DNA from: an uncultured bacterium
GTDB taxonomy: Bacteria > Verrucomicrobiota > Kiritimatiellia > RFP12 > UBA1067
Direction: 5' to 3'
DNA length: 60,540 bases
Assembly (NCBI GenBank): GCA_902799715.1
Contig: CADCBS010000004.1
Location: forward strand, 1-60,540
Part shown: positions 2,628 to 31,503 of the stretch, in pieces
How the letters are laid out: every line of letters starts with the position of its first letter
Position numbering within the stretch: position 1 is the stretch's first letter
Position numbers and translations under genes: made by a program
The notes under the pieces: model-generated
Databases searched by the model: none
What the model saw: the letters and a program-made list of their open reading frames with translations, nothing else
Told to the model about the DNA's origin: nothing

Positions 2628-4034
2628 ATGCTCCTGAATCGCCGCGAGTTCGCGAAGTCTTCGCTCGCCGCGCTGGGGTTCCTGGCCCTGCCGGGAACGC
2701 CCGTCTTCGCCGCGCCGGCCGGATGGAAGCCGGACAGGAAGCCGAATCTCGTCTTCGGGATATTGTCGGACACCCATCTGCTGGTGGGATGGGACGGCAA
2801 GTCTCCGCATCGGGACTTCCCGCTGAAATACGTCCATGCCGCGATGAAGCTCTTCAAGCGCCGCAACATCGATGCGTTCGTGCATCTCGGCGACGCGGCG
2901 CACCGCGGAGCCGTCCGCGAATGGGAGTTCCACAAGGAGTTGTTCCGGGACGTCTTCGGGAAAAGAAACACGCCCGAAACGATCGTCATCGTAGGCAACC
3001 ACGAGTATTACGGCAAAGACGCCCGCATAAAGAAGATCTGGCCCGATCCGGACAAATGGAAGGAGAACGCGATCTGCGCGGACGTCGCCCGCCACTACGA
3101 GCGCGTGTGGGGCGCGCCATACAAGGAGTTCTTCCACAAGGAGGTCAAGGGCTGCCATTTCTTCGGCCGCCACTGGACCGACGCGGAATACGACGGAACG
3201 CGCGAGGGTCCGTTCTCCGACTACATTCTCTCGAAAGCCGGCGAGTGCGCGCTCAAAGGCGCAAAGCCGTTCTTCATTCTCTCGCACAGGCGGCACCACT
3301 TCCGCTTCTGCAAGTCGCTGAAGGACTATCCGAACGCCATCGCGTTCATGGGCCACTGGCACCAGTCGAACGCCGACTGGAAAACGATCTACTGCGACCG
3401 CGACAGTTTCGGAGGATTCTTCCCGCACGTGGAGGTTGGAGCGTGCCGCTTCGACGGACACAACGGCATGTATCGTCCGCTCGAAACGGTCCAACCGGAG
3501 GATTCCGGCAGCTTCAAGGGCAGCTATATGCCGTCCCGCCAGGCGATGATCGTGAACGTGTACGACAGCATGGTCGTCTTCGAGCGCCACGAAGTCGGCC
3601 TGGGCGGCAAGCTCGGCCCCGACTGGGTTCTGCCGCTCGGCGAATACAGTCCGCATCCGTTCTCGCAGGAAGAGCTGAAGAAAACCATCGGCGAACCGCA
3701 GTTCGGCAGGAACGCCAAGCTTGCGGTGAAGAGGATAAGCTCCGCGCCTCCTCGCATCCAGGTCAGGATACCTCTCGCCGACGGCAACCCCGGTTCGCGC
3801 GTCTATGCATACGAAGTCGCCGTCACAGGGGACGATCCGGACGCGAGGCTGTGCAAAAGCGCATATTCCAAAGGTTGCAACGTCGCGCCCGGCCGCGAAC
3901 CGAACCGCGGCATCACCGAAGTGGATATTCCGGTCGCGGAGCTTCCCGCCGGAAAGAAACTCGCAATAGCCGTCCGTCCATTCAGCTCGCTCGGCACGGC
4001 CGGCCATCCCATCTCTACCGTTTTCAGAGCGTAA
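2628..4034 (+). CDS. Calcineurin-like metallophosphoesterase with a twin-arginine (Tat) signal.
   Basis: N-terminus MLLNRREFAKSSLAALGFLALPGTPVFA. Phosphoesterase motifs GILSDTHL, GDAAHRG, GNHEYY. GGAGGA SD upstream of the ATG. Confidence 0.8.
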   Translation: MLLNRREFAKSSLAALGFLALPGTPVFAAPAGWKPDRKPNLVFGILSDTHLLVGWDGKSPHRDFPLKYVHAAMKLFKRRNIDAFVHLGDAAHRGAVREWEFHKELFRDVFGKRNTPETIVIVGNHEYYGKDARIKKIWPDPDKWKENAICADVARHYERVWGAPYKEFFHKEVKGCHFFGRHWTDAEYDGTREGPFSDYILSKAGECALKGAKPFFILSHRRHHFRFCKSLKDYPNAIAFMGHWHQSNADWKTIYCDRDSFGGFFPHVEVGACRFDGHNGMYRPLETVQPEDSGSFKGSYMPSRQAMIVNVYDSMVVFERHEVGLGGKLGPDWVLPLGEYSPHPFSQEELKKTIGEPQFGRNAKLAVKRISSAPPRIQVRIPLADGNPGSRVYAYEVAVTGDDPDARLCKSAYSKGCNVAPGREPNRGITEVDIPVAELPAGKKLAIAVRPFSSLGTAGHPISTVFRA

Positions 4035-4097
4035 AGCAACCGGCAAGTCGCCGACAGCGCCGGCTTCGACGCCAAATTGCCGTTTGGCCGCGGGAAA

Positions 4098-4258
4098 TTT
4101 GCCGGGGAAATTGGCCGTGTAGAACATGTAGAATGTGCATACCGGGCATATTGGATATTGGTATTGGCTATTGGCAACATTTCCACATTGGCAACATTCA
4201 TTCTGGTAGGGCGCGTTGTCCCAACGCGCCGCGGCGGCTTGGGACAAGCCGCCCTACC
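4098..4258 (+). repeat. Composite repeat element, copy 1. It has an AT-rich head (TTGCCG..TAGAAC/TAGAAT), an ATTGGN microsatellite, 2 x 17-nt units (4170-4203) and a 54-nt REP palindrome (4205-4258).
   Basis: Direct reading. Same architecture at 4318-4511, 5826-6087 and 31358-31503. Confidence 0.85.
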
Positions 4259-4317
4259 AATCCAACGGTTCAAATGCCCCTTGCTTCAAAATAAGATTAC
4301 GGTGCGTATGATTTTGT

Positions 4318-4511
4318 TCGCCGGGGACAATTTGCCGTGTAGAACATTTAGAATGTGCGTACCAAGCATATTGGAAATTGGTATTGGTATTGGCAACATT
4401 TCCACATTGGCAACATTTCCTCATTGGCAACATTTCCACATTGGCAACATTCATCCTGGTAGGGCGCGTTGTCCCAACGCGCCGCGGCGGCTTGGGACAA
4501 GCCGCCCTACC
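4318..4511 (+). repeat. Composite repeat element, copy 2, with 4 x 17-nt units ATTGGCAACATTTCCAC (4389-4456) and a 54-nt REP palindrome (4458-4511).
   Basis: Direct reading. The REP is identical to 4205-4258. Confidence 0.85.
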
Positions 4512-4539
4512 AATCATTCCATTGTCGATGGAAAGACCA

Positions 4540-4568
4540 TTGCACCGAAGGCGAAATGATGCTACAAT
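4540..4568 (+). promoter_or_regulatory. Sigma70-type promoter: -35 TTGCAC (4540-4545), 17-nt spacer, extended -10 TGcTACAAT (4560-4568).
   Basis: Hexamers and spacing read directly. Lies between the REP hairpin and the ATPase start. Confidence 0.55.
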
Positions 4569-4612
4569 ATCGGGCATGACATTCAAGGATGTGACGATCG
4601 AGGATGACAGAT

Positions 4613-5824
4613 ATGAAAGCCAGTGACATCAGACAAGCGATCGAAGAGCAGAGGAAACTGCGCCGCGGGCGGACCGGAATGGAACGCGACGCATTGCGCG
4701 ACATCGCGTGCGAGGACGGATTCGCGACTATCGTGACCGGCGTCAGGCGCTGCGGAAAATCGACGCTGCTCGGCCAGTGGGCGGAGAAAAGCCGTGCGCG
4801 CACGGCATGCGTCAATTTCGACGACCTGCGCATGAGCGCGTTCGAGACGTCAGACTTTGCCGTGCTGGATTCCGTCGTGCGCGGACTGGGCGCGGATACG
4901 CTGGTACTCGACGAGGTGCAGGACATTCCGGAATGGGAGCGGTTTGTGACGGGATGCCTCGACGCGGGCCGCAAGGTGCTTCTCACCGGCTCCAACGCGA
5001 AGATGCTCAGCCGGGAGCTCGGGACGAAACTGACAGGCCGCCATCTGAACATGGAACTCTATCCATTCTCGTATGCCGAGTTTCTGCGCTTCACGAAAGC
5101 CGCCCCGTCCCCTGCATCGGTAGAGAAGTACGTCGGCACCGGCGGATTCCCGGCATACGTGCGGACGCGGCGCAGGGAAGTGCTGGAGGCGCTTTTCAAC
5201 GACATAATATACCGCGACATAGTCGTGCGCTACCGTCTGCGGAATCCAGTCCCGGTGCGTTCGCTCGCGGCGTATCTGCTGGGGCACGTCGGCGGCAGGG
5301 TGTCGCCGACAAGGCTCAAGGACGCGCTACATGTAAACTCGGCCACTACGCTTCTGGAATACTTCTCCTGCCTCGAAGAGACGTATCTCGTGAGGCGGCT
5401 GCCGAGGTTCGCATCGTCACCGAAGGCGCAGATGTCACATCCCAAGAAGATATACGCCTGCGACACAGGCCTGGTCTCCGCGCTGGCTCCGAGGGACGGT
5501 TCGGACAAAGGCCACAAACTGGAGAACCTTGTATATCTGAAACTTGTCCGCGACGGAGGCTCGCTTTCGTATTTCGCAGACGACGCCGGCGGGACGGAAT
5601 GCGACTTCATACAGGAAATGCGGGACGGAAAGGTGCGCGCCGTGCAGGTCTCCTGGACGCTGTCGGCGGAAAACGAAAAGCGTGAAATCAATGGCGCGAT
5701 CCGTGCGATGGAGCGCTTCGGACTTTGCGAATCGGTTTTGGTGACGCATTCGCAGTCCGATCTCGTGAATGCAGGCGGGCGCACTATAAGAGTTGTTCCC
5801 GCGCACGAATATTTGATGTCTTGA
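4613..5824 (+). CDS. AAA+ ATPase of the AAA_14/DUF4143 family (function unknown).
   Basis: Walker A GVRRCGKSTLL and Walker B LVLDEVQ, with a C-terminal region typical of DUF4143 proteins. GAGGA SD 8 nt before ATG 4613; the ORF is open from ATG 4604. Confidence 0.8.
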   Translation: MKASDIRQAIEEQRKLRRGRTGMERDALRDIACEDGFATIVTGVRRCGKSTLLGQWAEKSRARTACVNFDDLRMSAFETSDFAVLDSVVRGLGADTLVLDEVQDIPEWERFVTGCLDAGRKVLLTGSNAKMLSRELGTKLTGRHLNMELYPFSYAEFLRFTKAAPSPASVEKYVGTGGFPAYVRTRRREVLEALFNDIIYRDIVVRYRLRNPVPVRSLAAYLLGHVGGRVSPTRLKDALHVNSATTLLEYFSCLEETYLVRRLPRFASSPKAQMSHPKKIYACDTGLVSALAPRDGSDKGHKLENLVYLKLVRDGGSLSYFADDAGGTECDFIQEMRDGKVRAVQVSWTLSAENEKREINGAIRAMERFGLCESVLVTHSQSDLVNAGGRTIRVVPAHEYLMS

Positions 5825-5825
5825 A

Positions 5826-6087
5826 GGTAGGGCGCGTTGGTGCGAATGATTTAATTTGCCGGGGAAATTGATCGTGTAGAATGTGCGTACCGCGCATATT
5901 GGACATTGGTATTGGTATTGGTATTGGCAACATTTCCACATTGGCAACATTTCCTCATTGGCAACCTTTCCACATTGGCAACATTTCCACATTGGCAACC
6001 TTTCTACATTGGCAACCTTTCCACATTGGCAACATTTCCTCATTGGCAACATTCATTCTGGTAGGGCGCGTTGTCCCAACGCGCCGC
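5826..6087 (+). repeat. Composite repeat element, copy 3. It has a truncated REP (5826-5840), the AT-rich head with TAGAAT, the ATTGGN microsatellite, 8 x 17-nt units (5923-6058) and a half REP (6060-6087).
   Basis: Units counted base by base: 5923, 5940, 5957, 5974, 5991, 6008, 6025, 6042. Confidence 0.85.
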
Positions 6088-6228
6088 AGCCGACGCGGGC
6101 TGTCGGATGTCGAATGCCGGATGTCGAAACCTTCAACCACGATTTCATCATACGCACGGCAACCCCATTTTGTCCATGTTGCGGCATTTTGACGCAGTGA
6201 GATTACGGTGCGTATGAAATCAAATCAC

Positions 6229-6264
6229 GGGGGAGGGGAGGGGGATTGCGGGGGAGGGGGATTG
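6229..6264 (+). repeat. G-tract cluster (G5,G4,G5,G5,G5) including a GGGGGAGGGGGATTG duplication. Potential G-quadruplex upstream of the 6392 promoter.
   Basis: Five runs of at least 4 G within 36 nt, read directly. Confidence 0.6.
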
Positions 6265-6267
6265 TCA

Positions 6268-6348
6268 GATTTCTAAAAAGACATCGAAAAATTTGTCAGA
6301 TTTCGAAAATGTTTGATATTGAACAGGCCGGAGAAGAAGCGGTATAAT
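6268..6348 (+). promoter_or_regulatory. AT-rich promoter cassette paralogous to 123-203: -35 TTGAAC (6319-6324), 18-nt spacer, -10 TATAAT (6343-6348).
   Basis: GATTTCTAAAA and TGTCAGATTTCGAAAATGTTTGATATTGAAC align with the 123-203 copy. AAGGAT SD before ATG 6392. Confidence 0.65.
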
Positions 6349-6391
6349 ATAGCCGAATTGGAAATGCCATGCCACACCAAGGATCGAAACC

Positions 6392-6934
6392 ATGACAAGA
6401 AAAGCACACTGTCTGGGCGTCGCAACGGCGTGTCTCGCCGTCGCTATCGCCGCTGTCGCGAACCAGGCAATGGCCAGGCAGCCTGCGCCGAGGGCGGAAT
6501 CCTCGTCCAATACGCAATCCGCGCGAAAGGCGACAAGCGCCCAGCCGAAGGCAAAGACCGATGCGGGCGAGCAGACACTTGACGCCAAGTCCGCCGGAAT
6601 CATGCGCCGCATGAAAACGATACGCCTGCCGAACGTGTCGTTCGGGCCGCCGGATACGCTCATCGATGCAGTCGAATTCTTCCGCAAGGCGTCCTTCAAA
6701 TACGACAGCCCGGAACTTCCGGAGAAAGATCGCGGCTTCAGCTTCATCATGAACCTTGCCGATCCCGCCGCAGGCCTGCCGGCGCTCCCCAAGATAGCGG
6801 CGGACGACATCACGTTCTACGATGCGCTCAAACTCGTCTGCGGCAAAATCCACTACAAATTCACCGTCGAAAACGGTGTCGTGCGTCTCTACCCCGACGA
6901 CGCAGCCAAAGCCAAAAGCGCAAAGCAAAAGTGA
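6392..6934 (+). CDS. Secreted protein of unknown function. Its C-terminal ~100-aa domain is paralogous to the C-terminus of the next gene (STN/secretin-N-like by eye).
   Basis: Signal peptide MTRKAHCLGVATACLAVAIAAVANQAMA. MRRMKTIRLPNVSFGPPDTLIDAVEFFRKAS...RGFSFIM...FYDALKLVC..YKFTVENGVVRLYP matches 6993..8438 residues MRRMKAIVLPEVKFSPKTPLADAIGALRDAS...RGFSMIL...FHDALKTVC..YRFAVEENGVIVVEP. Confidence 0.7.
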   Translation: MTRKAHCLGVATACLAVAIAAVANQAMARQPAPRAESSSNTQSARKATSAQPKAKTDAGEQTLDAKSAGIMRRMKTIRLPNVSFGPPDTLIDAVEFFRKASFKYDSPELPEKDRGFSFIMNLADPAAGLPALPKIAADDITFYDALKLVCGKIHYKFTVENGVVRLYPDDAAKAKSAKQK

Positions 6935-6992
6935 ACCGGCACCGGCGGCAACGGCTTGGCCGTGGCGGACCGCCATACGGGGAGAAGAGCCT

Positions 6993-8438
6993 ATGAGAGT
7001 CTTGACAGCCTTGATTTCCATGTCTGCGGCCTGTGCAGCCTTCGCCGACGCGCGGGGACACGGCCCGGACGACTTCAAGGTCGAGCTGCGCGAAGTCGGT
7101 GTGATGCCGGCCGCCGACGATGACGGCGAACAGCCGAAAATGTTTCCGGCCGGCTCCCGCATAGTCGTGCCGCCCGGGAAGCTCGCCGTGTTCCATCTCA
7201 AGTACGACTTCCCCGCAGACGTCAAGTCCATGCTGTTTCTCGAGCCGAACTTCAAGGAGTCCGGACTGGACGAGAATCCGTTCGGCACGAGCGGGTCGAG
7301 GCTTTTGTCCGGCAGTGGATCGGTCACGAGAATCGTCATTCTCGGCGCAGGCGGCGCGGAGCCGTACAAGCAGGCGCTGCTGCTGAAGTCGGTTAGGATC
7401 TCCGGCGAAATAGAATCGGCCGAAGGCGCGCCGCGAAACGACTCGTTCTTCATCTGCGACATTCCGGTGAACGTGCTTTTCGCCGACATTCCGGTGAACG
7501 TGCTTTTCGCCGACAGGGAAGAGAACGGCAAGAAAGCGAAGGTGCTCGAGCCGGAGCCATCACCTGCGCCCGATCCGAAGCTCGGCGTCGCGGATTCCGC
7601 GAAGGCGTCCAGGGCAAAGTCGTCCACGCCCGCAGGATTCACCGACAACCTCGACGAGGCGCTCGCCAAGGCGAAAGCCGAAGGCAAGCTCGTCTACGCC
7701 TGCTTCTCCGGCAGCGACTGGTGCGGCTGGTGCATGAAGCTCGAACGCGAAGTGCTGTCCGATCCGCTGTTCGTGGCGGGCGTGGCGGACGACTACGTTC
7801 TCGTGTTCATCGACTCGCCGCAGGACAAGTCGCGGCTCTCGGAACGGGCGAAAGCCGAAAACGCAAAGCTGACGAAAAAATACGGCATACAGGGCTTCCC
7901 GACGGCGCTCATCCTCGACGGCGACGGGAAAAAGATCGCCGAGACCGGCTACCGCAAAGGCGGCGCGGCGGAGTATGCAAAGCATCTCAAATCCATCAAG
8001 GCGGGAGATTTCATGCCAGACGCGAAATGCGGGGAAGAGCCGCAGAAGGCCCGGCCGAAACCGAAGGCGAAAACCGGTGCGCGCGGAACAAGCCCGAAAG
8101 CCGCCGAAACCATGCGCCGCATGAAGGCGATCGTCCTGCCGGAAGTCAAGTTCAGCCCGAAGACGCCGCTCGCCGATGCCATCGGTGCGCTCCGCGACGC
8201 CAGCATCGACCATGACAGCCCCGAAACCCCCAAGGCGGACCGCGGATTCTCCATGATCCTGACGTGGGGGGATGACGGCGTTCCGTCGCTTCCCGAAATC
8301 AAGATGAAGAACGTCCGGTTCCACGACGCGCTGAAAACCGTCTGCGATGCGGTCCGCTACCGGTTCGCCGTCGAAGAAAACGGAGTCATCGTCGTCGAAC
8401 CCGGCGACAACAGCAAGGCAAGGGAGAATCGCCAATGA
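6993..8438 (+). CDS. Secreted thioredoxin-fold protein (WCGWC active site) with a C-terminal paralogous STN-like domain.
   Basis: Signal peptide MRVLTALISMSAACAAFADA after a GGAGA SD. Thioredoxin_7-like segment GKLVYACFSGSDWCGWCMKLEREVL...YGIQGFPTALILDGDGK. The ORF-track start at 6822 overlaps the previous gene and was rejected. Confidence 0.75.
   Translation: MRVLTALISMSAACAAFADARGHGPDDFKVELREVGVMPAADDDGEQPKMFPAGSRIVVPPGKLAVFHLKYDFPADVKSMLFLEPNFKESGLDENPFGTSGSRLLSGSGSVTRIVILGAGGAEPYKQALLLKSVRISGEIESAEGAPRNDSFFICDIPVNVLFADIPVNVLFADREENGKKAKVLEPEPSPAPDPKLGVADSAKASRAKSSTPAGFTDNLDEALAKAKAEGKLVYACFSGSDWCGWCMKLEREVLSDPLFVAGVADDYVLVFIDSPQDKSRLSERAKAENAKLTKKYGIQGFPTALILDGDGKKIAETGYRKGGAAEYAKHLKSIKAGDFMPDAKCGEEPQKARPKPKAKTGARGTSPKAAETMRRMKAIVLPEVKFSPKTPLADAIGALRDASIDHDSPETPKADRGFSMILTWGDDGVPSLPEIKMKNVRFHDALKTVCDAVRYRFAVEENGVIVVEPGDNSKARENRQ
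7458..7511 (+). repeat. Perfect 27-bp tandem duplication inside the coding sequence (DIPVNVLFA x2).
   Basis: gacattccggtgaacgtgcttttcgcc occurs at 7458-7484 and again at 7485-7511. Confidence 0.95.
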
Positions 8439-10615
8439 ACTTGAAAACACTCACACATACAGCGCGGCGCATCCTGCTTGCGGCTGCGGCCGCTGCGGCG
8501 GCGGCCGCGTCCGCGGGGACGGCTGACGTGAAAGTCTATCCGCAAAGCTTCGAGGCGGGCGGATGGGGGCTTGACGCGCAGTTCATGGACGTGATGGGCT
8601 CGCCGTACCTCATCGCGCACGGGCTCGGCGTGCGCGTCCTCGACGCGAAGGCGCGCGTGGCGTTTCCGGCCGCGGGCAGGTACCGCGTGTGGGTGCGCGC
8701 GAAAAACTGGGCCGACGGCGCGCCGGGCCGCTTCCGCGTACTGGTGGACGGCAAGCCGCTCGCCAAAGAGTTCGGCGCGGGGCCGCGCGAATGGACGTGG
8801 GAGGACGGCGGCACCGTAACGGTCGCGAAAGGCGAAGCGACGGTCGCGCTGCGCGACCTCACCGGCTTCGACGGGCGTTGCGCGGGAATAGTGTTCAAGG
8901 CGGACGGGGACGGTCTCCCTCCCGAAGGCCCGCTGAAGATCGACGAATCGAAGGCGGACGAGACGGTGAAGGCCGACTTCGTCGTGGTCGGCGGCGGAAT
9001 GCCGGGGACGTGCGCGGCCGTGGCGGCGGCGCGGCGCGGCATAAAGGTCGCGCTCGTGCAGGACCGCCCGGTGCTGGGCGGCAACGCTTCCGGCGAAATC
9101 CGCGTATACTGCGCGGGCGAGGCGAAGCACGACATCGTGCGCGAGCTGCGCGGCTTTTTCATGAACCGCGACGTGAACACCCCGCTTTGCGACACGCGCC
9201 GGATGCGGATCGTGCAAGACGAGAAGAACATCGACCTGCACCTCTCCACCCGCGCGTTCGGCGTGGAGATGAACGCGGACGGAACCATCGCCGCCGTGAA
9301 GGCGCTCGACCTGAAGACCAACCGCACGATCCGCTTCGAAGCCCCGCTTTTTTGCGATGCGACTGGCGACGGCTGGGTGGGATACTGGGCCGGGGCCGAA
9401 TGGCGCATGGGGCGCGAGGCGAAGAGCGAGTTCGGCGAATCGCGCGCGCCGGAAAAGCCCGACGGCGACACGCTGGGGGCGTCGATCATGTGGACGAGCG
9501 CCGACGCGAACGCGCCCGTACCGTTCTCCGCGCCCTGGGCGGAGCCGCACGCGCAGGGCGTGGTGGCGGTGAACGGCGAGTGGCGCTGGGAATACGGCAT
9601 CCACCGCGACATGATCGCGGAGGGCGAGGAGATTCGCGACAGGATGCTCCTGGCGATCTACGGCGCGTTCTCGCTTGCGAAGAAGCGTCCGGAAAACGCG
9701 AACAAGACGCTGAACTTCTGCCCATACCTGATCGGCAAGCGCGAGTCGCGCCGCCTGATGGGCGACTGGGTGCTTTCGCAGAAGGACGTCGCGGCCAACA
9801 CGCCGTTCAAAGACGCCATCGCGTCCGGCTCGTGGTCGATAGACCTGCACTACGACGGATACAGGCCCGGCGTGGACTTCCTGGCCAGGAACACCGCCGA
9901 CAGCTGCGGACGGTTCTGGATCCCCTACCGCTCCATCTACTCGCGCAACGTTGGCAACCTCTTCATGGCCGGGCGCTGCTTCAGCTGCACGCACGTGGGG
10001 CTGGGCGCGCCGCGCGTGATCTGCACGCTCTCGCAGATGGGCGTGGCGGCGGGCGAAGCGGCGGCGATGTGCCGCGAGCTGGGCGAAACCCCGCGCGGCA
10101 TCTGGAAAAACGGCCACGTGCGCGCGCTCCAGTTGCGGCTCGGCGGCGGCTTCCCCGGCGTGCCCGATCCCAAGACCGCGGGCTGGGCGATAGTCGACGA
10201 CGAATCCAAAGGCGTGACGTTCGGCAAAGGATGGAGAAAGTCCCGCAACCACAACGGCGGGCAGGTCGGCGGATGGACGCACTTTCCGAACAGAAAAGCC
10301 GCGAAGCACGAACCGGCGACATATCCGCTTCCCGTGAAGAAGGCCGGGCGCCACGTCCTCATGGGCAAGGTGCCGTATGCGTATGAAGCGAAGCCCGGCT
10401 CGGCGACTGCGTTCGAAATCGCCTCCGGCGGGAAAAAGACGCCGTTCACGGCCGACCAGGCGCAATCCACCGGACAGTGGGTGAAGCTCGGCGAGTTCGA
10501 CCTCGAACCGGGCGCGACGCTTACCATAATACCTGCGAAGTCGAAAGGCCATGTCGCCGCCGACGGCTTCGCGCTGATATCGCAAGAACAACAGAACAAG
10601 GAGAAAAAGCAATGA
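8435..10615 (+). CDS. Secreted FAD-dependent oxidoreductase (FAD_oxidored family) with N- and C-terminal carbohydrate-binding-like extensions.
   Basis: Dinucleotide-binding motif DFVVVGGGMPGTCAAVAAARRGIKVALVQDRPVLGGNASGE. Signal-like N-terminus. ATGA overlap with the upstream stop. Confidence 0.75.
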   Translation: MNLKTLTHTARRILLAAAAAAAAAASAGTADVKVYPQSFEAGGWGLDAQFMDVMGSPYLIAHGLGVRVLDAKARVAFPAAGRYRVWVRAKNWADGAPGRFRVLVDGKPLAKEFGAGPREWTWEDGGTVTVAKGEATVALRDLTGFDGRCAGIVFKADGDGLPPEGPLKIDESKADETVKADFVVVGGGMPGTCAAVAAARRGIKVALVQDRPVLGGNASGEIRVYCAGEAKHDIVRELRGFFMNRDVNTPLCDTRRMRIVQDEKNIDLHLSTRAFGVEMNADGTIAAVKALDLKTNRTIRFEAPLFCDATGDGWVGYWAGAEWRMGREAKSEFGESRAPEKPDGDTLGASIMWTSADANAPVPFSAPWAEPHAQGVVAVNGEWRWEYGIHRDMIAEGEEIRDRMLLAIYGAFSLAKKRPENANKTLNFCPYLIGKRESRRLMGDWVLSQKDVAANTPFKDAIASGSWSIDLHYDGYRPGVDFLARNTADSCGRFWIPYRSIYSRNVGNLFMAGRCFSCTHVGLGAPRVICTLSQMGVAAGEAAAMCRELGETPRGIWKNGHVRALQLRLGGGFPGVPDPKTAGWAIVDDESKGVTFGKGWRKSRNHNGGQVGGWTHFPNRKAAKHEPATYPLPVKKAGRHVLMGKVPYAYEAKPGSATAFEIASGGKKTPFTADQAQSTGQWVKLGEFDLEPGATLTIIPAKSKGHVAADGFALISQEQQNKEKKQ

Positions 10616-13205
10616 ACATCCCCCCCCCCCCCCCCCCGCAAGGCGCACCCCGCACCGCATAGCCGCGGCGTTTTCGCTTGCCCTCGCCTTCGCCGCCAAT
10701 GCGGCGACGCCAATCTACTGGAAAGGCGGCAGCGGAACTGAAGCCGAGCCGCGGGATGTCTACAGCAAGGACAACTGGACGGGCAACAGTTCATATTCCG
10801 GCGGTTCCATCGGTCAAAACCCGACTGGTCAGCACAACTTCCACTTCAAGGCAGATTCGCTCACGTATCTGACCAACTGCAGCCCCTCTGCGGTTTCGGG
10901 CAACATTTGCGAGCAGATGATGTTTCATACCGGCGACTACTCGCTCTGCGGTTTCTTCACAACAAAATCAGCGGTTAATGTCGGAGCCGATGCGGGAGAC
11001 GAAGCTATCGTCACAGTCAACGGCGGCAGCGTTACCGTAGGCGCCGAACTCTATGTGGGCGGTACCAGCACGGCGGGCGGTACTGGAACGCTGACGATAA
11101 ACGGCGGCAACGTCGTGGTGGCGTCAGGCAAAAACACGCTCGCGGGCTTTGCCAGCGGCTCCACGGGCACGATAAACCTCAACGGCGGCGTTCTAACGAC
11201 GATGCGCATCGCAAAGGACAAAGGAAAGGGCTACCTCAACTTCAACGGCGGAACACTCCAGGCGAACGCCGACCATAACGAATACATAAAGAGCGGCATC
11301 ACGGTCACCGTTCTTGCGGGCGGCGGCACGATCGACTGCAACGGCAAGAACATCGCGATTGACGCGCAATGGAGCACCGAGAGCACCGGCGGCATGAACT
11401 TCACGGGCGGCAACGGCAACACGATTTCGATTCCCAATAAAAGAGCCATCACATACCCCGGCATTACATCCATTACGCCTGGTACGCGGCTCGCCGTTTC
11501 CAATTTGAGTTACTCCAAGAATCTCATTTCGAATGGAATCGTCGTCGCGGGCGTCCCGGCGGTTGGCGATGTGATCTTCACCTGCACGAGAGGCGAAGGA
11601 AATACGCTTGATGGCGTCAGCCTCGATAACGTGAAGTGCCCCATCGCGCCGGGAACCACGTTCGCCCTTGACGACAGCACGACGAACATCGTCGTCACGG
11701 CCGTCGGAACGCCGCTTGAGAACTACTGGACTGGCAACGCCGGCGACGGCAACCTCAGCAACCCCGCAAACTGGGCGAACGGTGTGCCGGGGAGCGGCGA
11801 AAGCGCCAACATCATCTGTGCAGCCCCTGCTACGCTGACGAAGGGAGACACGTTCGCGCCGGCTTCCATCACGTTCCTCGAAGGTTGCGCGGCGGTGACG
11901 ATCGACGGCGGCACGGCGTTCGAGAACATCACGGAGATAGTCAGCCTTTCTTCGTCTTCGCATACGATTAATGTTCCTGTCCGCTTCACGGGCGACATTC
12001 AGGTCAAGCAGCCGGCGATGGCGGAGACGAGCGATCTCGCGAAGCCGCATGTAACGTTCGCGGGCGGCGCGTATGCCGCGGCTGGATATTCTATCGAAAG
12101 CGGCAATTCCGCCGCAGTCTATTCTCGCTGCATCTTCGGCAAGTACTACCTTGGCAGCACATCGGCGAGCCGCTGGACGGCACAGTATCAGGGCGGCAGC
12201 AAGCGCGTTTGCGTTGCGGACGGCTCCTCGCTCTATGTTCCGTACGCAGGGAATGTCTCGGAACTCTATGTCGCTGCCGGCGCGAAGGTGGACATTGGTG
12301 ACATGAACACAAGCGGTCGTCCTTCCTACCGGGTTTACGGCGAAATGGCCGTCACCAACTTGACGGCGACAGGCTCAACTGCAATATATGCGACATATGG
12401 TCAGAGTTTGGACACCCCGGGTGTGTTCAAGTTCGGCACGGTCACGAATGAGATGTCGAACACCAAAGGCGTACTGTTCTATTTTGCCGATGGAAATGTG
12501 GCGGGCAGCCATGTGTTCTACATTGGCGAAGGCGGTGTGAACTACAAGACTGCGACAACTACAATATATATCGTCGGGCGCGACAGCGAAGGGAACAGCG
12601 AGACGATTCGTCCGTGGTATTCCGACTTCACCATAGGGGCGCGCCCTGGCGATGACAACCCAGCCGGACTCAGGTTCTTCCGCGATGTCGAGTTCTGCAC
12701 GGACGACGAGAACGGCACAGGGCGGACGATAACGCTGGAAGCGAGAACGCAGGTACAGGCGAATAAGACAGCGGCAATCATGGTCTCCGGCTCGGGAACG
12801 TTGAAGGTGACGCAGCCAGATGAAAATGGCGCCCAGCCGACCGTTACGCTGGCGGGCACGGCGACGCTGGAGTACACGGCGAAGACCGCAGACCTCGGCG
12901 CGGCGTCGATCGCGCTCGGCGCGGGAACGAAATTCGCGTTCCAGAACTCCGGCAGCACGCTCGCGCTTCCTTCGCCCATAACATTGCCGGCGGAAGGCGC
13001 GGCTACGCTACGCATCGACGGCGACAGGCTCAACGCCGGCAACACGCATACGATCGCGACCGGCGTCGAGGCCGACGCCGCCGACCACCTGACCGTCGAT
13101 CCCGAGAGCGCGGCGCTTGACGGACGCAAGGCCACCCTTGCTGTCAAAGACGGCAACCTCGTCCTCGAATTCGAATCCAGGGGCCTGACCATAATCATCA
13201 AGTAG
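10612..13205 (+). CDS. Adhesin-like secreted beta-helix protein with autotransporter-associated beta-strand (PATR-like) repeats. The reading frame is interrupted at the C18 tract (phase-variable OFF state or homopolymer assembly error).
   Basis: ATG 10612 has an AAGGAG SD (10598-10603) and an ATGA overlap with the upstream gene. The frame open from 10638 encodes signal peptide ARRTPHRIAAAFSLALAFAANA and continues into the 762-aa ORF (10917..13205). One extra C restores a single ORF. Confidence 0.7.
10620..10637 (+). repeat. Homopolymeric C18 tract (simple sequence contingency repeat).
   Basis: Counted directly: the final c of line 10561, plus 10, plus 7. Confidence 0.95.
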
Positions 13206-22900: not shown

Positions 22901-23315
22901 TGTCGGCGGAGCGGCCTTCACGGAACCGGTGCGCCTCAAGTGCGGCAAGGGGAAGATATCGCTCGGGAACTGGGCGCGGAAGGCGGACGGACTCATGTTC
23001 TACTCCGGCGGCGCGGTGTATGAAAAGACGTTCACGCTGACTAAAGAACAGGCGGAGCGGTACGATTCGCTCGTGTTCGGCGGAGTGGGCGCATGCTGCA
23101 AAGTTTCGCTGAACGGCGGTGCGGAGACGACGCTCTGCTGCCCGCCGTGGCGCGTCGACGCCGGCGGAAAGCTGAAGGAAGGCGAAAACGTCCTCAGGGT
23201 CGAAGTCTACAACACGCTCAACAACCACTACCAGACGATACCCACGCGCTACCGCACGTCGATAGACCGGGCGCAGTCGGGGCTGTCCGGTCCGGTGACG
23301 CTCGAAGAGAAGTGA
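19974..23315 (+). CDS. Large secreted glycoside hydrolase (GH106-like alpha-L-rhamnosidase family by eye) with a C-terminal GH2-type sugar-binding-like domain.
   Basis: Signal MRKDLFARAALAACIAALSAAAA, followed by GEVPFWWWSG..IDKGRLLEQIEELHKAGIAGVQVNY. ATGA overlap with the GH3 stop. The first 703 codons of the 1816-aa track ORF are an alternate frame of the GH3 gene. Confidence 0.6.
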   Translation: MRKDLFARAALAACIAALSAAAAGTAGPGFPKAGDEAAKTIRADFKAPPPGYGEVPFWWWSGPDRIDKGRLLEQIEELHKAGIAGVQVNYSHYRTSFATQDSDPALFTPEWWDVFAFAAKECARRGMGISLSNYTLDIPERENLWRKLGISTRETRATELAYVNGKIVKRKVPGTYDPLAPEAGKRVVERFFDPFMEKVPEEARGALNYFFQDELVLGRGILWMWTDDLPAEFKKRKGYDIEPLLPALFTDFGPDTAKVRLDMNDVMSALACERYFKPIYDWHASRGLVYGCDQATRGTHPTKEYIDYMRTMKYFTAPGFDTPGRSADIIKNKTGSSIAHLNRRPRVWLEGYHSQGWQASTSTIFDSTCHNYLYGSNLLNLHGLYYSTYGGWWEWAPPCYHFRMPYWTCMKTFLKYFERLSFMLSQGEHVCDVAVVNPLEPCVYNRDRGNVSVGVAHDIVRRLVTEAQTDVDFIDADSLARAEAEDGRLRVAGEAYRMVVVPDMIAIKRASLEKLVAFKRAGGKVAVLGAKPLFTDTPHAGKAQADALVKELCEGDGALVLPAKPSAAELAKIAGAAGTPDFRAPGAAKALHRRIGAYDVYFVCDLAKTGECVFRAAGTPELWNPWDGSQKPLPDFRRNADGTTTVKIEGDGAPKLVVFSPGGGAPRKSGCYAGTPQAPERKKIAPMAIDGDWDFTPIPTLDNKHGDFRLPVRERFIGPEIRRVEMQDAGKYGLPSRMTVSFGPQFIDESTSKPFLFSWREGAEGMPGFQDWHHGLNGRTGDDFFVLGPYDRRFYDVRPKRGAKPEPKTFKTFVYAPCDCKAMPVAHGAAPEYISIDGAARKPGEEVALSAGYHELSVRYRAFGRAALVMMRTDVKSEPSKVPLSMRWHDDPAVLRFDPFGGKIAKAAYTATLPPACEEISVRLRGTLLSAKIGGEEAEVAQTAAESGENICTVKPVKVHEGVATLSLEIAHEPGNVGGAAFTEPVRLKCGKGKISLGNWARKADGLMFYSGGAVYEKTFTLTKEQAERYDSLVFGGVGACCKVSLNGGAETTLCCPPWRVDAGGKLKEGENVLRVEVYNTLNNHYQTIPTRYRTSIDRAQSGLSGPVTLEEK

Positions 23316-23365
23316 CGGGCGTCAAGCGGATTCCATACTGGAAGAAGAAAAGAAAGAAGGGGATA

Positions 23366-25108
23366 ATGGACGGGACGAAAGCAACGATCAAGCCAGCGCT
23401 GGCGGCCGTCGCGGCCGCGGTTTGCGCGGCAGGCGCGGCGTGCGCGGCGCAGGGGAAGCCAAAGGCCGTTGTGTTCATGCTCGACGGATGCCGGGCGGAC
23501 GCGATAGAAAACGCGGCGGCGCCGAACATGCGGAAACTGATGGACGGAAAGTGGCAGGAAGGCTACAGATGCGCGTGGTCGCTGTCGGCCCAGACCGTCC
23601 CCGACGCGATATCCTCCAGCGCGCCGAACCATGTCGCCATCGCGACTGGAGTGACCACGGCCAAGAACTGCGTGACGAACCTCGGCGTGCAGATGTCGCA
23701 GTGCGACTACAAGAAGTATCCCAGCTTGCTCGTGCGGGTGGCGGAGGCCGACCCTTCGGTCAGGGCGCTCTTCATGTACGGCTGGCCCGCCGACGAAAGG
23801 ATATGCCCGCACCCGCGCGTCGAGGCGGTTCCGGGATCGGCCGTCGCGGGCAAAGGCCTGATCGCCCGCGCAGGCGTCCCATGCGCCAAGGACGTCGCGA
23901 ACGGCGCCGAGTACGCGAAAAGGCTTTCCACGGAAAAAGCCCCCGACGCCGCGATGATCTACCTCGACCTGCCGGACCACGCCGGGCACGGCTACTTCGG
24001 CGGCGAAGGCGCGGGCTTCTATCCGTACAGGACGTCGTATCTCAAATCGATCGCGATATGCGACGCGATAATCGGGAAATGCATGGACGCCATAGCGGCG
24101 CGCCCGTCGTTCAAGGACGAAGACTGGATGATCGTGATAACCGCCGACCACGGCGGATATTCAAACACGCACGGACTCCTCGGCGGGCACGCGACATCGA
24201 TTCCGCTCATAGTGTCGTCCCGCGGCGTCAAGCAAGGGCGCATCCCCGGAACGCCCAAGAACTACGACGCGGCGCCGACGGTCCTGCGCCATTTCGGAAT
24301 CGACGTCTCGGGATTCGATCTCGACGGAAAGGCCGTTGGCGGCGAAGTCGCGCAGGAGCGGACGCGCCCGCTGGCGGAAGGGCTTGCGGCGTATTTCACC
24401 TTCGACGGGAAAAAGCCGTCGAACGAGGCCGCCGCCGGACCGTCCGCCGTCCTTTGCGGAAGAACGAAATCCGGCGCCGCCGGGGGCATCCTCGAAAAAT
24501 GCCTTATCGTGGCGAACGGCGCGAAGGGCGCGCCGGGAGGCGTCCTGCTGAAAGGCTCGGAGGCGCTGAAATTCGAAAACGGAGCGGACTTCGCGATGAC
24601 GATGTGGGTCAGGATGGACGCGCCGCAGAAGGCCGACGCGCTTATATTCGGAAACAAAGACTGGAGTTCGGGCAACAACCCCGGCATCGCGCTTTGCGCA
24701 TCGAAATGCACCGAGAACGTGAAGAACCGGGGCGTGGTTTTCAACTGCGTCACGCCCTGGGGACGGAAGCGGATCGACATCGGGACGTACGACGTCGAAT
24801 ACGGCAAGTGGGTGTTCTACGCGATCGTGCGCGGATCCGACGGCGTGGCGAGGCTCTACCAGGGCGCTCCCGACGGCACGCTCTACTTCATCTCCGAAGA
24901 CGTCCGGGACATCAAGCTCGAAACGTCGCTGCCCTTCCACATCGGCCAGGACGGGACCGGCAGGTACGGCGCGACCTTCAACGGCGCCGTGGACGACTTC
25001 GCGCTCTGGACGAGGGCGATTTCGCACGGCGACGTGAGGCGCATCTACGAAGCCGGCCGCAAGGGGCTGCCGCTCGGCGACCTGCTGAAAGGCTCGCCGC
25101 TGCCGTAA
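23366..25108 (+). CDS. Alkaline-phosphatase-superfamily enzyme (type I phosphodiesterase/nucleotide pyrophosphatase-like) fused to a LamG/concanavalin-like domain.
   Basis: Signal peptide, then KAVVFMLDGCRADAIENAAAPN, SSSAPNHVAIATG and ITADHGG motifs. C-terminal LamG-like segment (DFAMTMWVR..ALIFGNKDW..FNGAVDDFALW). GAAGGGGA SD. Confidence 0.65.
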   Translation: MDGTKATIKPALAAVAAAVCAAGAACAAQGKPKAVVFMLDGCRADAIENAAAPNMRKLMDGKWQEGYRCAWSLSAQTVPDAISSSAPNHVAIATGVTTAKNCVTNLGVQMSQCDYKKYPSLLVRVAEADPSVRALFMYGWPADERICPHPRVEAVPGSAVAGKGLIARAGVPCAKDVANGAEYAKRLSTEKAPDAAMIYLDLPDHAGHGYFGGEGAGFYPYRTSYLKSIAICDAIIGKCMDAIAARPSFKDEDWMIVITADHGGYSNTHGLLGGHATSIPLIVSSRGVKQGRIPGTPKNYDAAPTVLRHFGIDVSGFDLDGKAVGGEVAQERTRPLAEGLAAYFTFDGKKPSNEAAAGPSAVLCGRTKSGAAGGILEKCLIVANGAKGAPGGVLLKGSEALKFENGADFAMTMWVRMDAPQKADALIFGNKDWSSGNNPGIALCASKCTENVKNRGVVFNCVTPWGRKRIDIGTYDVEYGKWVFYAIVRGSDGVARLYQGAPDGTLYFISEDVRDIKLETSLPFHIGQDGTGRYGATFNGAVDDFALWTRAISHGDVRRIYEAGRKGLPLGDLLKGSPLP

Positions 25109-25117
25109 ACGCCGCAT

Positions 25118-25180
25118 GGCAGGGCGCGTTGTCCCAACGCGCCGCCTCGCCGCGGCGGCTTGGGGACAAGCCGCCCTACC
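25118..25180 (+). repeat. REP palindrome, long variant, between convergent genes.
   Basis: ggcagggcgcgttgtcccaacgcgccgc...ggcggcttggggacaagccgccctacc. Confidence 0.85.
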
Positions 25181-25208: not shown

Positions 25209-25236
25209 GGCAGGGCGCGTTGTCCCAACGCGCCGC
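25209..25236 (+). repeat. Half REP palindrome (first hairpin only).
   Basis: ggcagggcgcgttgtcccaacgcgccgc. Confidence 0.8.
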
Positions 25237-31200: not shown

Positions 31201-31295
31201 TCGGCGACGGCAGTTGTTGCAGCGAAGAGCGCGAAAGCCAACGCGACAGCCGCCTTTGTCGCCGCCGCGCTTATTCTTTTCATTGTCGTTTTCAT
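25293..31295 (-). CDS. Giant (2000 aa) secreted beta-helix surface protein/adhesin-like with PATR-type repeats and an internally duplicated ~389-aa module.
   Basis: Signal peptide MKTTMKRISAAATKAAVALAFALFAATTAVA. Repeats of type KKGAGTLALG...EGTLKV. AGGA SD upstream. Confidence 0.9.
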   Translation of the reverse strand: MKTTMKRISAAATKAAVALAFALFAATTAVADEDLNGGTRSITTADGLKGKTWINGTLDVSANQTLADATTTLGSGLTVNQTSGWWGLAGTTTLNINGATINYTSTSTPYFGKRASNEGTYGGTTSVSLNNGKFICSSTDIKFTARASSTTDNRDVVISFTMASNSEMAVPSGKNITFGGMEQANSKKHKTLKMTASVADSKITANQITIGQTTSYLNTPASSANTITFGSGADLTLYHQIYAYLYPQPSVKFNGATIHYAGASGNKSFIGQNTAVTTDIYEIQSGGLTIDIPSGVSLTTDDNSSALKGAGGITKTGAGSITWNNITGSSPTKKMTFTGPLVVSNGTWASTKDYAASAFRAEGGNLTLSGALSASSVVLSATDGGVLTLAGATITDDSPDLTLASGGTTDYFTRDGAVAAYTLDAFTLGAGGILSLDANATETDAISVTTTNITATAANPATINLNFTAAPAAGTTFALFETDDAAKFNVNPTFGAVALPHEVAVVNGALTLTITADDYTWNGSGTSWDDTGAWDRNSAAADWEDGNNAIFATDGAAATLAANAAVNEIVFRDNATVDGAATLTVPSVSVAQGVTATVTAPMAGAIEKKGAGTLALGASRTEQTTVTEGTLKVLSGATVAPAKLTLGTDPSKPVALDCDGETLSTDFSVAANRYMAPGMDVTLANGTFHTTANPGFNGAAAPAVLTIAKDAVFRSSARYTWNASYDANVDSDTTVNIFGGQMVSDENGNNWFMQNSRRGTLRFNVTDGGLFQTGGETYIMTCRDNTTEADTPEMYMMFSNSTFRVANNKNLHIGYDSGNRNPLEPKFSLAMTNSVLDVGTGIINLGHNVVGANTAGFYTADFVDSVITAKCFKVFHDRPANSARFDNSTLVLSAADSWSIGTHQNFGPSSTPMTIGAGGLTIDTQAFTCNLQADPQGEGAIVKKGSGILNIQRNQTATGALNVNEGTLALGESVATLSRPLSFAGGTTLDVAGGAPVAITSIALPASGDVTLLKGGSAFAKGVYRIFSGNVAAADVQDRLVPSTGGEVYSWMVKDGVLLLNVGNLPGNAWTGFAGDGKMSTDANWLDETAPVAGEAVDFSGVTAAATIEGDIDAALGAVTMGSGIVTFTGDKMKAASFSEMEKVAVGANSTVTVDGDLMLTYVDGADHYAVYKVNAGGKFIVTGKLGLAAGSNCALRPQASPGTGLVVAGSVVNDSAKNIYATLDDNSVTHKWVIGPGGITGTTENNGLWVNANSKVNPEFQPWTNDFTVSLWTVLRENAKSWTYNTTGLDGLGHTITLDAGFSDKGVPVYITGPGKVVVNHVTKTFGGKNPYSGEVKVNDTATLAVNPGMKFTTGKTTFTAGTTLEVTPVASGDAALFGTLAFTGPGTVTLKAAGDSALADGEYTLFTASSALADTVLSNFTLDASAVSGGKDAWIFRDGASVKLCIGNRAEAYPYGVWMGGMDANFSTPGNWKNGLVPRAGDALDFSGVGSAKTVNADINVAFGAVTMGSGVVTFTGSLTASSFSDTSKVAVGANSTVTLDGNLEFTGGSGVYIVYKVETGGAFIVTGLITLKSGDLDPQYNNNYSVGGGVIVAGGLRNNGANSLYTSSDRTYQKWIIGPQGIAGNSTGCFWARSYNLLKSEFQAYTNDFEIALPIVFRTEVDYITFNTTGWGDSKGHTITFNSGIYDNGTPVNITGKGTVVANHYTTDSYNGNRAPFSGAVNVKDTATLAINAGKRITTGAISFATGTTLALPQTGTVTMGGNLTLAADTTLKFTLGKTDTTLAIASNKTLTLPEEGTVAVTLASGSVFAPGKTYTLISGAGLQVEDLAKFSFPEGESDKFSIDEDGNLVYVAPSYFTIRIADADAGGDFDVKVPGDWLTGEAGLETCGEGTLASTGANGLPLWKSYCLGLRPTDATSLVLCEPALAQVPSSGGFAVCAKNLSVPAELEGVAVTAYLERRSGRDWVPVGDGVSVAPGAGPVVLAGNLGEGESASFFA

Positions 31296-31357: not shown

Positions 31358-31503
31358 GAATGTTGCCAGTGTGGAAGTGTTGCCAGTACCAGTGTTGCCA
31401 ATTTCCAATTGAGAATTGGTATTGGAATTGGAATTGGATATTTTCACATTGGCAACATTTTACAAGTGTTGGGGCCGGTAGGGCGCGATGACCCCATCGC
31501 GCC
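31358..31503. repeat. Mirrored (back-to-back) copy of the composite repeat. Degenerate 17-nt units point toward the giant gene (31358-31410) and toward the + strand (31441-31470), centred on CCAATTgagAATTGG. A REP variant lies at 31477-31503.
   Basis: Direct reading on both strands. The REP variant GGCGCGATG-accc-CATCGCGCC carries a compensatory T>A / A>T pair relative to GGCGCGTTG-tcc-CAACGCGCC. Confidence 0.75.

Follow-up and report, generated by a model that had tools for sequence, protein, structure and literature searches.

The first 60,540 nucleotides of contig CADCBS010000004.1 (assembly GCA_902799715.1, forward strand), from an uncultured bacterium of the Kiritimatiellia, are referred to here as the window, and they raise the question of what the three composite repeats are that lie in the same direction around a gene for an AAA_14/DUF4143 ATPase. 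An original prediction from the sequence had treated each repeat as a single element, composed of an AT-rich head, a run of (ATTGGN)n, an array of a 17-nt unit and a 54-nt palindrome, and had proposed a small RNA family, an iteron-like protein-binding array or an element resembling a MITE (a miniature transposable element with inverted repeats). The analysis favors another explanation, to which a probability of roughly 0.7 is assigned. The window elements would be non-coding, decayed half copies of a palindromic repeat, the Kiritimatiellae palindromic element (KPE, a label coined in this analysis), in which the right arm has expanded, and which were fused to GTAG-tagged repetitive extragenic palindromes (REPs) and duplicated around the AAA_14/DUF4143 gene; the family itself would be a selfish or neutral hairpin repeat. 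The window repeat would then be explained as ordinary repeated DNA, namely REP doublets and decayed copies of a hairpin repeat.

Two palindromic families in the composite repeats

A reading of positions 3600-6600 placed the three copies at approximately 4084-4258, 4318-4511, and 5846-6085. Their alignment supported the predicted order and orientation, with a head, an (ATTGGN)3-4 run, the array, CATTCATYCT, and a GC-rich palindrome in every copy, but the full 54-nt palindrome was present in copies 1 and 2 only (4205-4258 and 4458-4511), and copy 3 retained its first 26 nt (6060-6085) and was divergent beyond them. Copy 3 had been thought to start at 5826; positions 5826-5839 are instead what is left of a different REP, which, compared with two other assemblies, has been truncated by an 83-nt deletion. 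The heads are AT-richer and conserved among the three window copies. Tandem Repeats Finder (TRF) reported the 17-nt unit ATTGGCAACATTTCCAC at 4389-4451 (3.7 copies, 95% matches) and 5923-6053 (7.7 copies, 92%). When up to three mismatches were allowed, the 17-mer was matched 12 times in the window, compared with 0.06 times expected from shuffles, and 11 of these matches fell inside the three arrays, the remaining one being located at 31371-31387 on the minus strand. The predicted series of 2, 4, and 8 units in copies 1, 2, and 3 was confirmed by counting TTGGCAAC modules at 17-nt spacing, the final module of every array being a truncated ATTGGCAACATTC. The array of copy 3 also contained the variants CCTTTCCAC, TTTCCTC, and CCTTTCTAC.

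The arrays do belong to a repeat family, as had been proposed, and this family is represented in 41 species-level assemblies. Related loci were collected by the exact 26-mer ATTGGCAACMTTTCYWCATTGGCAAC with one genome per species, which yielded 91 stretches in 41 species-representative assemblies. All but two of the assemblies were labelled Kiritimatiellae/Kiritimatiellia, Lentisphaerae or Verrucomicrobia or carried no taxon label, the two exceptions being a Victivallales bin and a 2.4-kb contig binned as Fibrobacter, and most of the titles that named a source referred to a ruminant gut site. No exact match to the 26-mer was found among viral contigs, and no earlier description of such repeats in Kiritimatiellae was found in the literature searched. 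At most of the 91 loci, the 26-mer forms the 3' end of a palindrome of ~100 nt that consists of a left arm, a centre, and a right arm. The KPE consensus begins with AATGTTGCCAAT-GTGGAAAT-(GTTGCCARTnCCAAT)n, followed by the centre CCAATTGG, and continues to the right as (ATTGGN)n-ATTGGCAAC-ATTTCCAC-ATTGGCAACATT. The left arm is thus built from the modules GTTGCCA(A/G)T and NCCAAT, the right arm from ATTGGN and ATTGGCAAC, and each arm has an 8-nt module (GTGGAAAT on the left, ATTTCCAC on the right). The 17-mer of the window corresponds to the outer right arm, which is composed of the 9-nt ATTGGCAAC and the 8-nt ATTTCCAC.

A KPE profile of 104 positions was built from 53 copies and used in an nhmmer search of the window. 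The window arrays matched this profile only at positions 53-104, which cover the centre and the right arm, with E-values of 1e-13 to 1e-15; copy 1 matched profile positions 54-104 of 104 at window positions 4150-4200 (E 6.8e-15), copy 2 gave an E-value of 3.8e-14, and the heads had no match to the left arm. Because the match covers the centre and right arm only, the (ATTGGN)n run and its 17-mer array are interpreted as a right half-element in which the outer 17 nt (9 + 8) have been multiplied. The other loci contained at most three modules, and the 4- and 8-module arrays of the window are therefore the largest seen. A census recorded 118 profile matches in 621 kb of loci. The same search detected one full-length KPE in the window (Table 1), which is intergenic and located upstream of a 2000-aa minus-strand gene (25293-31295). 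KPE copies are predicted to fold as hairpins, with a mean of -43.8 kcal/mol per 100 nt, a z-score of -8.2, and 72% of the bases paired, and a 166-nt segment that includes the full window copy and its flanks has predicted RNA folding energies of -70.9 kcal/mol for the plus strand vs. -45.0 kcal/mol for the minus strand. A KPE subfamily with an extra central GC hairpin (CCTCCTTCGCCAARGGCTACGGAGGATAA) was observed at L045 4114-4219, L076 2338-2426, and L086 1034-1157.

The GC-rich palindrome of the composite repeats was absent from all 91 related loci. Its unit, GGTAGGGCGCGTTGTCCCAACGCGCC, is an imperfect palindrome of 25-26 nt with a 9-bp stem (GGCGCGTTG/CAACGCGCC), a length within the 20-40 bp of short palindromes, and the 54-nt doublet is predicted to fold as a long GC-rich hairpin. 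GTAG-tagged REPs have an unpaired GTAG at one end, form inverted doublets, and are usually found downstream of open reading frames (ORFs) (PMC3733652). In the window, the GTAG tag is located at the outer end of the palindrome, at 4206, 4459, 5827, 6061, and 31478 and, on the minus strand, at 4257, 4510, and 25179, with a GCAG variant at 25119 and 25210. Three inverted doublets are present (4205-4258, 4458-4511, and 25118-25180), and all seven REP sites are intergenic. The 54-nt palindrome had been counted as a part of one element; its REPs, however, are also present without KPE at 25118 and 25209, which marks them as a family of their own. The array is an arm of a larger palindrome. The GC-rich palindrome falls within the GTAG REP class as an ordinary member, and each of the four KPE-derived sites in the window has a GTAG REP on its 3' side. 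As a separate observation, GC-rich hairpins that resemble REPs but differ in sequence adjoined half or full KPEs in L004, L021, L063, and L072, an example being GGCGGGCGCGGAGGCCCGC in RUG10619 and RUG14821. The joining of KPE and REP may mean that one repeat family serves as a preferred landing site of the other.

Strain variation, heads, and functional alternatives

Comparison with other assemblies indicated how the composite repeats vary. Copies 1 and 2 were identical in ENA contig L001, an independent assembly; the three assemblies that cover the 8-module array (the window, L214, and L215) have it in identical form. Relative to L214 and L215, 83 nt are missing from the window 3' of the AAA_14/DUF4143 gene's stop codon, namely the remainder of a REP doublet together with the spacer. 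Upstream of this gene, L214 has a recombinant copy that combines the head of copy 3 with the 4-module tail of copy 2, whereas at the same position L216 has a diverged copy with two modules, compared with four in the window, and with three 9-nt repeats of the GTAGRAC type. Outside the window, two otherwise ~99% identical Type ISP genes differ by a 15-nt (6 + 9) in-frame module, and the right arm of a KPE has been deleted in L039 relative to L041 and L081. The slippage or recombination expected by the original prediction is supported by these comparisons of strains and relatives, including the paralogues that share a head and have four vs. eight modules. Together with the deletion in L039, the strain comparisons also provide a route by which half-elements can arise.

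An assembly or binning artefact would be a scarcely credible source of these structures. Contigs of other assemblies often end inside repeats, as do several of the five other contigs that encode the exact 403-aa AAA_14/DUF4143 product, and one 26-mer match lies on the 2.4-kb Fibrobacter-binned contig, but identical arrays were recovered in the independent assemblies L001, L214, and L215, and an in-frame KPE insert in carB (see below) occurs in four assemblies with different project labels (RUG, RGIG, and metaWRAP bins).

In the proposed sequence of events, the right arm would have grown from the usual two TTGGCAAC modules to four and eight, likely by replication slippage or unequal recombination, and the left arm would have been replaced by a species-specific head. 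Each half-KPE would have come to abut a REP or REP doublet of the second, independent family. The local repeat unit consists of a REP doublet, a spacer (...GATTACGGTGCG.ATGA...), a head, an array, and a REP, and it flanks the AAA_14/DUF4143 gene on both sides; this whole module would have been duplicated, and its copies would recombine between strains. Runs of 17-nt units would be tolerable in the window because the copies are intergenic. The window copies probably have no dedicated function beyond that of hairpins in DNA or in read-through transcripts.

A rival proposal makes each module a small RNA gene. Such a gene would have its promoter in the spacer or head, and its RNA would comprise a 5' hairpin, single-stranded AUUGGCAAC repeats and, at the 3' end, a REP hairpin; the repeats would offer multiple sites to an RNA-binding protein or serve as seeds for pairing with complementary GUUGCCAAU tracts located directly upstream of ribosome-binding sites in this lineage. 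A promoter-like TTCAAA-16-TATGAT directly upstream of copy 2, the retention of the head among the three window copies, and the GC-rich hairpin that ends each module are consistent with this proposal, and complementary targets exist in the lineage as left-arm halves of KPE between a stop codon and the next ribosome-binding site. The -35- and -10-like hexamers TTGCCG and TAGAAT that had been noted in the head are indeed present, but they are separated by 24, 11, and 15 nt in the three copies, the promoter scan misses both, and there is no promoter common to the three copies. In L214, the second hexamer of the spacer's promoter-like site is AATGAT. Furthermore, no Rfam match was obtained even at E<=10, the head was absent from all 91 related loci and had already diverged in strain L216, where its putative stem is lost, the hairpins have no U-tail and gave negative results in the terminator scan, and the module number varies freely. 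The same sequence also appears to be read as protein in other genomes, which would argue against a conserved RNA function of the motif. The small RNA is thus an improbable account of the module. A conserved head hairpin, ATGTGC/GCATAT, was considered and dropped because it is absent in L216, although copy 1 has a predicted pairing between GGGAAAUUUGCC of the head and GGCAACAUUUCC of the array. A metagenome scan with the 16-mer head GTAGAATGTGCRTACC gave 120 matches, all of which were chance matches from unrelated environments with none near TTGGCAAC, the pattern being too short.

An iteron- or operator-like function would require a DNA-binding protein that recognizes the TTGGCAAC motifs and regulates or mobilizes the AAA_14/DUF4143 gene. 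Direct repeats of 17 nt do flank this one gene on both sides, and their variable copy number is typical of iterons. On the other hand, the window neighbours, which Pfam assigned to GH97, a metallophosphoesterase, AAA_14/DUF4143, and a thioredoxin-like gene, include neither a replication initiator nor a partition gene, and there is no plasmid context; across 41 genomes the motif was located at 118 sites, beside or inside unrelated genes such as carB and gltB, and the AAA gene is unlinked to KPE in other loci. These results make protein-binding arrays a very unlikely explanation. Readings of TTGGCAAC as a sigma-54 promoter or an NF-I-like site were dropped because the GG-to-GC spacing is unsuitable.

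Several further signals were observed close to the repeats. The likely promoter of the AAA_14/DUF4143 gene is TTGCAC-17-TACAAT with a TG extension (TGCTACAAT) at 4537-4566, downstream of the REP of copy 2, which places the repeats upstream of that site. The spacer motif GATTACGGTGCGTATGA recurs 3' of copy 1 and of copy 3 (4296-4312; 6150-6217), and near 6150-6165 the reverse complement TCATACGCACGG lies ~40 nt upstream of GATTACGGTGCGTATGA and could form a hairpin with it. Positions 6229-6312 hold a G-rich direct repeat (GGGGAGGGGAGGGGGATTGCGGGGGAGGGGGATTG) and then TTGTCAGATTTC.AAAA in two copies, directly upstream of a good sigma-70-like promoter, TTGAAC-18-TATAAT (6319-6348), and of a gene that starts at 6392.

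Table 1. Repeat features of the window and the gene that they flank
Feature	Position	Strand	Details
Copy 1 head	4084-4149	+	Degenerate 13-nt repeat 4084-4117; TTGCCG 4099-4104
Copy 1 head, 9-nt duplication GTAGAACAT/GTAGAATGT	4119-4136	+	Plus possible stem ATGTGC..GCATAT
Copy 1 half-KPE	4150-4204	+	ATTGGN run 4150-4169; one 17-mer and truncated ATTGGCAACATTC 4170-4199; then ATTCT
Copy 1 REP inverted doublet, REPIN-like	4205-4258	+	GGTAGGGCGCGTTGTCCCAACGCGCC GCG GCGGCTTGGGACAAGCCGCCCTACC; GTAG-tagged
Promoter-like TTCAAA-16-TATGAT	4285-4312	+	Spacer directly upstream of copy 2; consensus match only, 9/12 positions
Copy 2 head	4318-4369	+	TTGCCG 4332-4337; TAGAAC 4340-4345; TAGAAT 4349-4354
Copy 2 half-KPE	4370-4457	+	ATTGGN run 4370-4388; 3 full 17-mers and truncated module 4389-4452; then ATCCT
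Copy 2 REP inverted doublet	4458-4511	+	Identical to the 4205-4258 doublet
AAA_14/DUF4143 ATPase gene	4613-5824	+	Pfam; context, outside the repeat; repeat modules on both sides
REP doublet stump	5826-5839	+	83 nt between 5839 and 5840 present in L214 and L215
Copy 3 head	5846-5897	+	Without the 9-nt duplication; TTGCCG 5856-5861; TAGAAT 5877-5882
Copy 3 half-KPE	5898-6059	+	ATTGGN run 5898-5922; 7 full 17-mers and truncated module 5923-6054; then ATTCT
Copy 3 single REP, first half of doublet only	6060-6085	+	
REP doublet without adjoining KPE	25118-25180	+	10 nt 3' of the stop codon that ends gene 23093-25108
Single REP, GCAG tag variant	25209-25234	+	
Full-length palindromic KPE	31359-31459	+	nhmmer profile positions 4-102, E 2.8e-23
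Variant single GTAG REP (GGTAGGGCGCGATGACCCCATCGCGCC)	31477-31503	+	18 nt after the full KPE copy

KPE inside genes and its possible mobility

The 17-nt unit is not a multiple of three, and the arrays had on that ground been called non-coding. This holds for the 17-mer arrays of the window, but the 6- and 9-nt modules of KPE are found in frame in other genomes. In the census, 37 of the 118 profile matches (31%) were located 60 nt or more inside called ORFs, and called genes made up 80% of those loci; KPE is thus depleted in genes but far from excluded. The deep placement of KPE in ORFs is not a gene-calling error: the host ORFs run on past the insert and have Pfam or PDB matches on both sides.

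CarB provides the clearest view of an insert. The L003 protein aligns over its full length to Escherichia coli CarB (1bxr), except that query residues 537-576 stand in place of E. coli residues 551-559, which lie between two aligned stretches. The insert at this first site has 40 residues (...GHTPLANVANVEMLPIANANNQVVTGNTGNIGNTGNIGNI), and the site is filled in four species; comparison of the flanks suggests that in L047 it is short or without an insert. Predicted peptides across the insert junctions of CarB include ...YYSAEGHAPLANVANVEMLPI... and ...GNTGNIGKIMVLGGGPNR. A second CarB site is occupied in L026, L030, L047, and L068 and lacks the insert in L003 and L079. GltB contains two KPE copies, at one of which (site 2) the L016 orthologue has an unrelated low-complexity linker rich in Pro and Glu, and an MmeI-type enzyme contains three. 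One in-frame KPE each was found in a Type ISP enzyme, GH31, GH38, GH2, an N6_N4 methylase, and a metallophosphoesterase. At most sites, the encoded peptide reads NVANVEMLPI-ANSNSQL-GTGNIGTGN, with CCQCGNVAN... and MLPMWKCCQ... as alternative entry frames. KPE peptides matched no Pfam family; when a 41-aa consensus of the insert peptide was searched against a protein database, four candidates had words in common with it and none of them scored, and a search with a 116-aa CarB segment across the insert returned short CarB fragments only. Judging from the kept frame and the lack of stop codons, an in-gene KPE is probably translated as an Asn/Gly-rich loop (NVANVEMLPIANSNSQLGTGNIGTGN).

Two side observations concern the hosts. 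Restriction-modification genes were frequent among them (L009, L011, L067, L077, and L083), accounting for ~4 of ~13 distinct hosts and including the MmeI-type gene with three inserts, the Type ISP gene, and the N6_N4 methylase; this frequency could reflect tolerance, horizontal gene transfer or something more specific. The KPE subfamily in GH31 genes (L020, L054, L062, L085, L089, and L092) has another central insert, which is read as ...NEGDKPNWKLG....

The sequence of KPE is unusually compatible with translation. A mean of 4.6 of the six reading frames was open per copy, compared with 3.06 in dinucleotide shuffles (53 copies), and all six were open in 11 of the 53 copies vs. ~1% of the shuffles. 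Stop codons are depleted on both strands, and intergenic copies are as open as those in ORFs. Because the 6- and 9-nt modules are multiples of three, slippage of these modules keeps the reading frame, whereas the 8-nt module, and hence the 17-mer, is not a multiple of three. The occurrence of long 17-mer arrays only in the intergenic copies of the window would fit a frame-breaking 8-nt module. KPE copies inside genes would have survived through their frame-keeping modules and their poverty in stop codons, and would be simply translated.

The orientation of KPE differs between genes and intergenic regions. The two arms are inexact complements, with CCAGT tending to lie opposite ATTGG on one strand (G-U or G-T wobbles) and A-C mismatches on the other. 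Among 27 independent sites in ORFs, the A/C version was the sense strand at 21 and the G/T version at 4, with 2 ties, whereas copies between co-directional genes showed no orientation bias (9 vs. 8). That intergenic copies show no bias speaks against insertion being biased by replication direction and points to selection inside genes, which may act on the peptide or on mRNA structure. The strength of the mRNA hairpin was considered as the cause and found weakly supported, since the strands differ by 2.7 kcal/mol on average.

These distributions also bear on whether KPE and REP hairpins are cis-elements selected by the host, such as 3'-end stabilizers, terminators or operon spacers, rather than selfish DNA. 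The window REPs at 25118 and 5826 are located directly 3' of stop codons, the usual position of REPs (PMC3733652), the predicted hairpins are very stable, and many half elements occupy short gaps between co-directional genes. However, ~30% of the copies are in ORFs, where a terminator would harm, intergenic KPEs have no preferred orientation relative to the flanking genes, no U-tracts are present, and presence or absence varies between close relatives. Host selection is thus an unlikely origin for the two families. With respect to the short gaps, left-arm half elements (GTTGCCAAT...; GTTGCCAATGTGGAAATGTTGCCAA followed by an NCCAAT run) were observed to fit exactly between a stop codon and the ribosome-binding site and ATG of the next gene (L018, L029, L033, L038, L049, L060, L073, and L090), filling most of the short intergenic gap, and the gene on their 3' side often begins with MKK..., resembling a secreted protein or lipoprotein.

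KPE would accordingly be best described as selfish or neutral repeated DNA that has spread as a hairpin, and its mobility is suggested by copy number, by presence or absence between species, and by analogy. In a more far-reaching version, which is possible but doubtful, KPE would be a still-active, coding-compatible mobile hairpin specific to rumen Kiritimatiellae that moves as single-stranded DNA by means of a trans-acting enzyme, possibly HUH/RAYT-like, and insertion, expansion, and contraction would spare essential enzymes because the modules (6 and 9 nt) are codon-sized. Movement as single-stranded DNA would fit two features, namely that no target duplications were detected and that the arms are asymmetric in their G-T wobbles.

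Several points weigh against the preferred interpretation. Selection by an exact 26-mer over-samples well-preserved KPE copies, ORFs came from a home-made codon-usage caller, and Pfam or PDB checks covered 11 host proteins. The head is unlike the KPE left arm, and "half copy" thus describes the present state of the sequence, not a demonstrated history; the conserved head and the promoter-like site upstream of copy 2 may also leave a small probability that the module produces an RNA of its own. With regard to mobility, the longest shared flank words were distributed as in random controls in the search for target-site duplications, empty sites hold an unrelated linker and not a clean excision footprint, and no left-arm/right-arm pair that encloses a gene, as expected for an autonomous copy, was present in the 621 kb of loci. 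No RAYT (Y1 transposase) or other transposase domain was detected among the 23 proteins scanned from the window, a 60-kb part of the genome. One isolated KPE (L013 604-703) has a 17-nt flanking direct repeat, CGGCCCGCGCAAACATC, ~6 nt out from each end. This flank motif recurs several times in L012, and the L013 case may thus be another repeat and not a target duplication.

Other repeats were observed in the window. Homopolymers occur as C18 at 10620-10637, just after the gene at 8435-10615, and as G17 at 31592-31608, which is intergenic and downstream of the full KPE; both tracts are candidates for slippage, phase variation or assembly trouble. The thioredoxin-like ORF (6822-8438) contains a perfect 27-nt tandem repeat of 2.2 copies at 7457-7515, and the gene probably starts later than the longest ORF, the L214 call being 333 aa. 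The 2000-aa ORF at 25293-31295 (minus strand) has no Pfam match and contains internal direct repeats of ~1.16 kb (families D4, D7, D8, and D16), and a 9/18-nt tandem repeat (CCTCCAGTC-like, 5 copies) is present at the very end of the window (60425-60482).

Comparison with known systems

KPE is apparently an undescribed repeat family in an uncultured and ecologically important rumen lineage. It breaks metagenome assemblies, several contigs ending inside these repeats, and the putative Asn/Gly-rich loops of ~25-40 residues in CarB, GltB, and restriction enzymes can mislead gene finders, the annotation of domains, and structure prediction.

The GC-rich palindrome of the window resembles the GTAG REPs and REPINs, the presumed substrates of RAYTs (PMC3733652), in its length of 25-26 nt, its outer GTAG, its occurrence as doublets and singlets, and its extragenic location after stop codons. 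The 17-mer array and KPE differ from these REPs in being AT-richer (43% GC) and four times longer and in having neither a GTAG nor a CGTC tag. The idea that GGA motifs on the complementary strand could act as a sponge of the CsrB/RsmZ type finds little to sustain it: regularly spaced GGA motifs are shared with those RNAs, on the minus strand only, but there is no Rfam match, the predicted folds give no sign of GGA in repeated hairpin loops, and the KPE motif appears to be read as protein elsewhere.

Bacterial MITEs include Correia, ERIC, and the Coxiella QMITE, the last of which fuses in frame with ORFs (PMC10969869, PMC5896051). Of the three roles originally proposed, a MITE-like element comes closest: KPE is ~100 nt long, non-autonomous, and multicopy, has terminal inverted repeats (AATGTTGCC...GGCAACATT) and a long stem-loop, and is sometimes intragenic. 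Unlike MITEs, it has no detected target-site duplication, and no parent insertion sequence with matching ends was detected in the 621 kb of loci. Palindromic amphipathic repeat coding elements (PARCELs) are likewise coding repeats with dyad symmetry in the DNA that, like KPE, are apparently mobile within genomes. PARCELs form tandem 25-residue amphipathic domains in otherwise uncharacterized ORFs, many with membrane-targeting sequences, whereas KPE is a single Asn/Gly-rich insert of ~33 aa in known enzyme families and is also common between genes.

Rickettsia palindromic elements (RPEs; Ogata et al. 2000) are palindromes of ~100-150 nt without a transposase that occur both in intergenic regions and in frame in housekeeping genes (PMC10969869, PMC3184786). 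KPE is similar in being palindromic and multicopy, in occurring between genes and in frame in unrelated genes, and in encoding a conserved peptide that is apparently tolerated (PMC10969869, PMC3184786). KPE differs from RPEs in its strong in-gene orientation bias and in having arms of 6-, 8-, and 9-nt modules, the number of which changes by slippage. Such slippage-variable arm modules are not known from RPEs. The hosts of RPEs are obligate intracellular alphaproteobacteria, and those of KPE are gut anaerobes of the Planctomycetes-Verrucomicrobia-Chlamydiae (PVC) group. Given the phylum of its hosts and its modular sequence, KPE is unlikely to be homologous to RPE-1 to RPE-10. KPE thus resembles RPEs in kind, apparently not by descent, and would represent a second, independent system for the study of selfish palindromes in coding genes, which so far have been studied mainly in Rickettsia.

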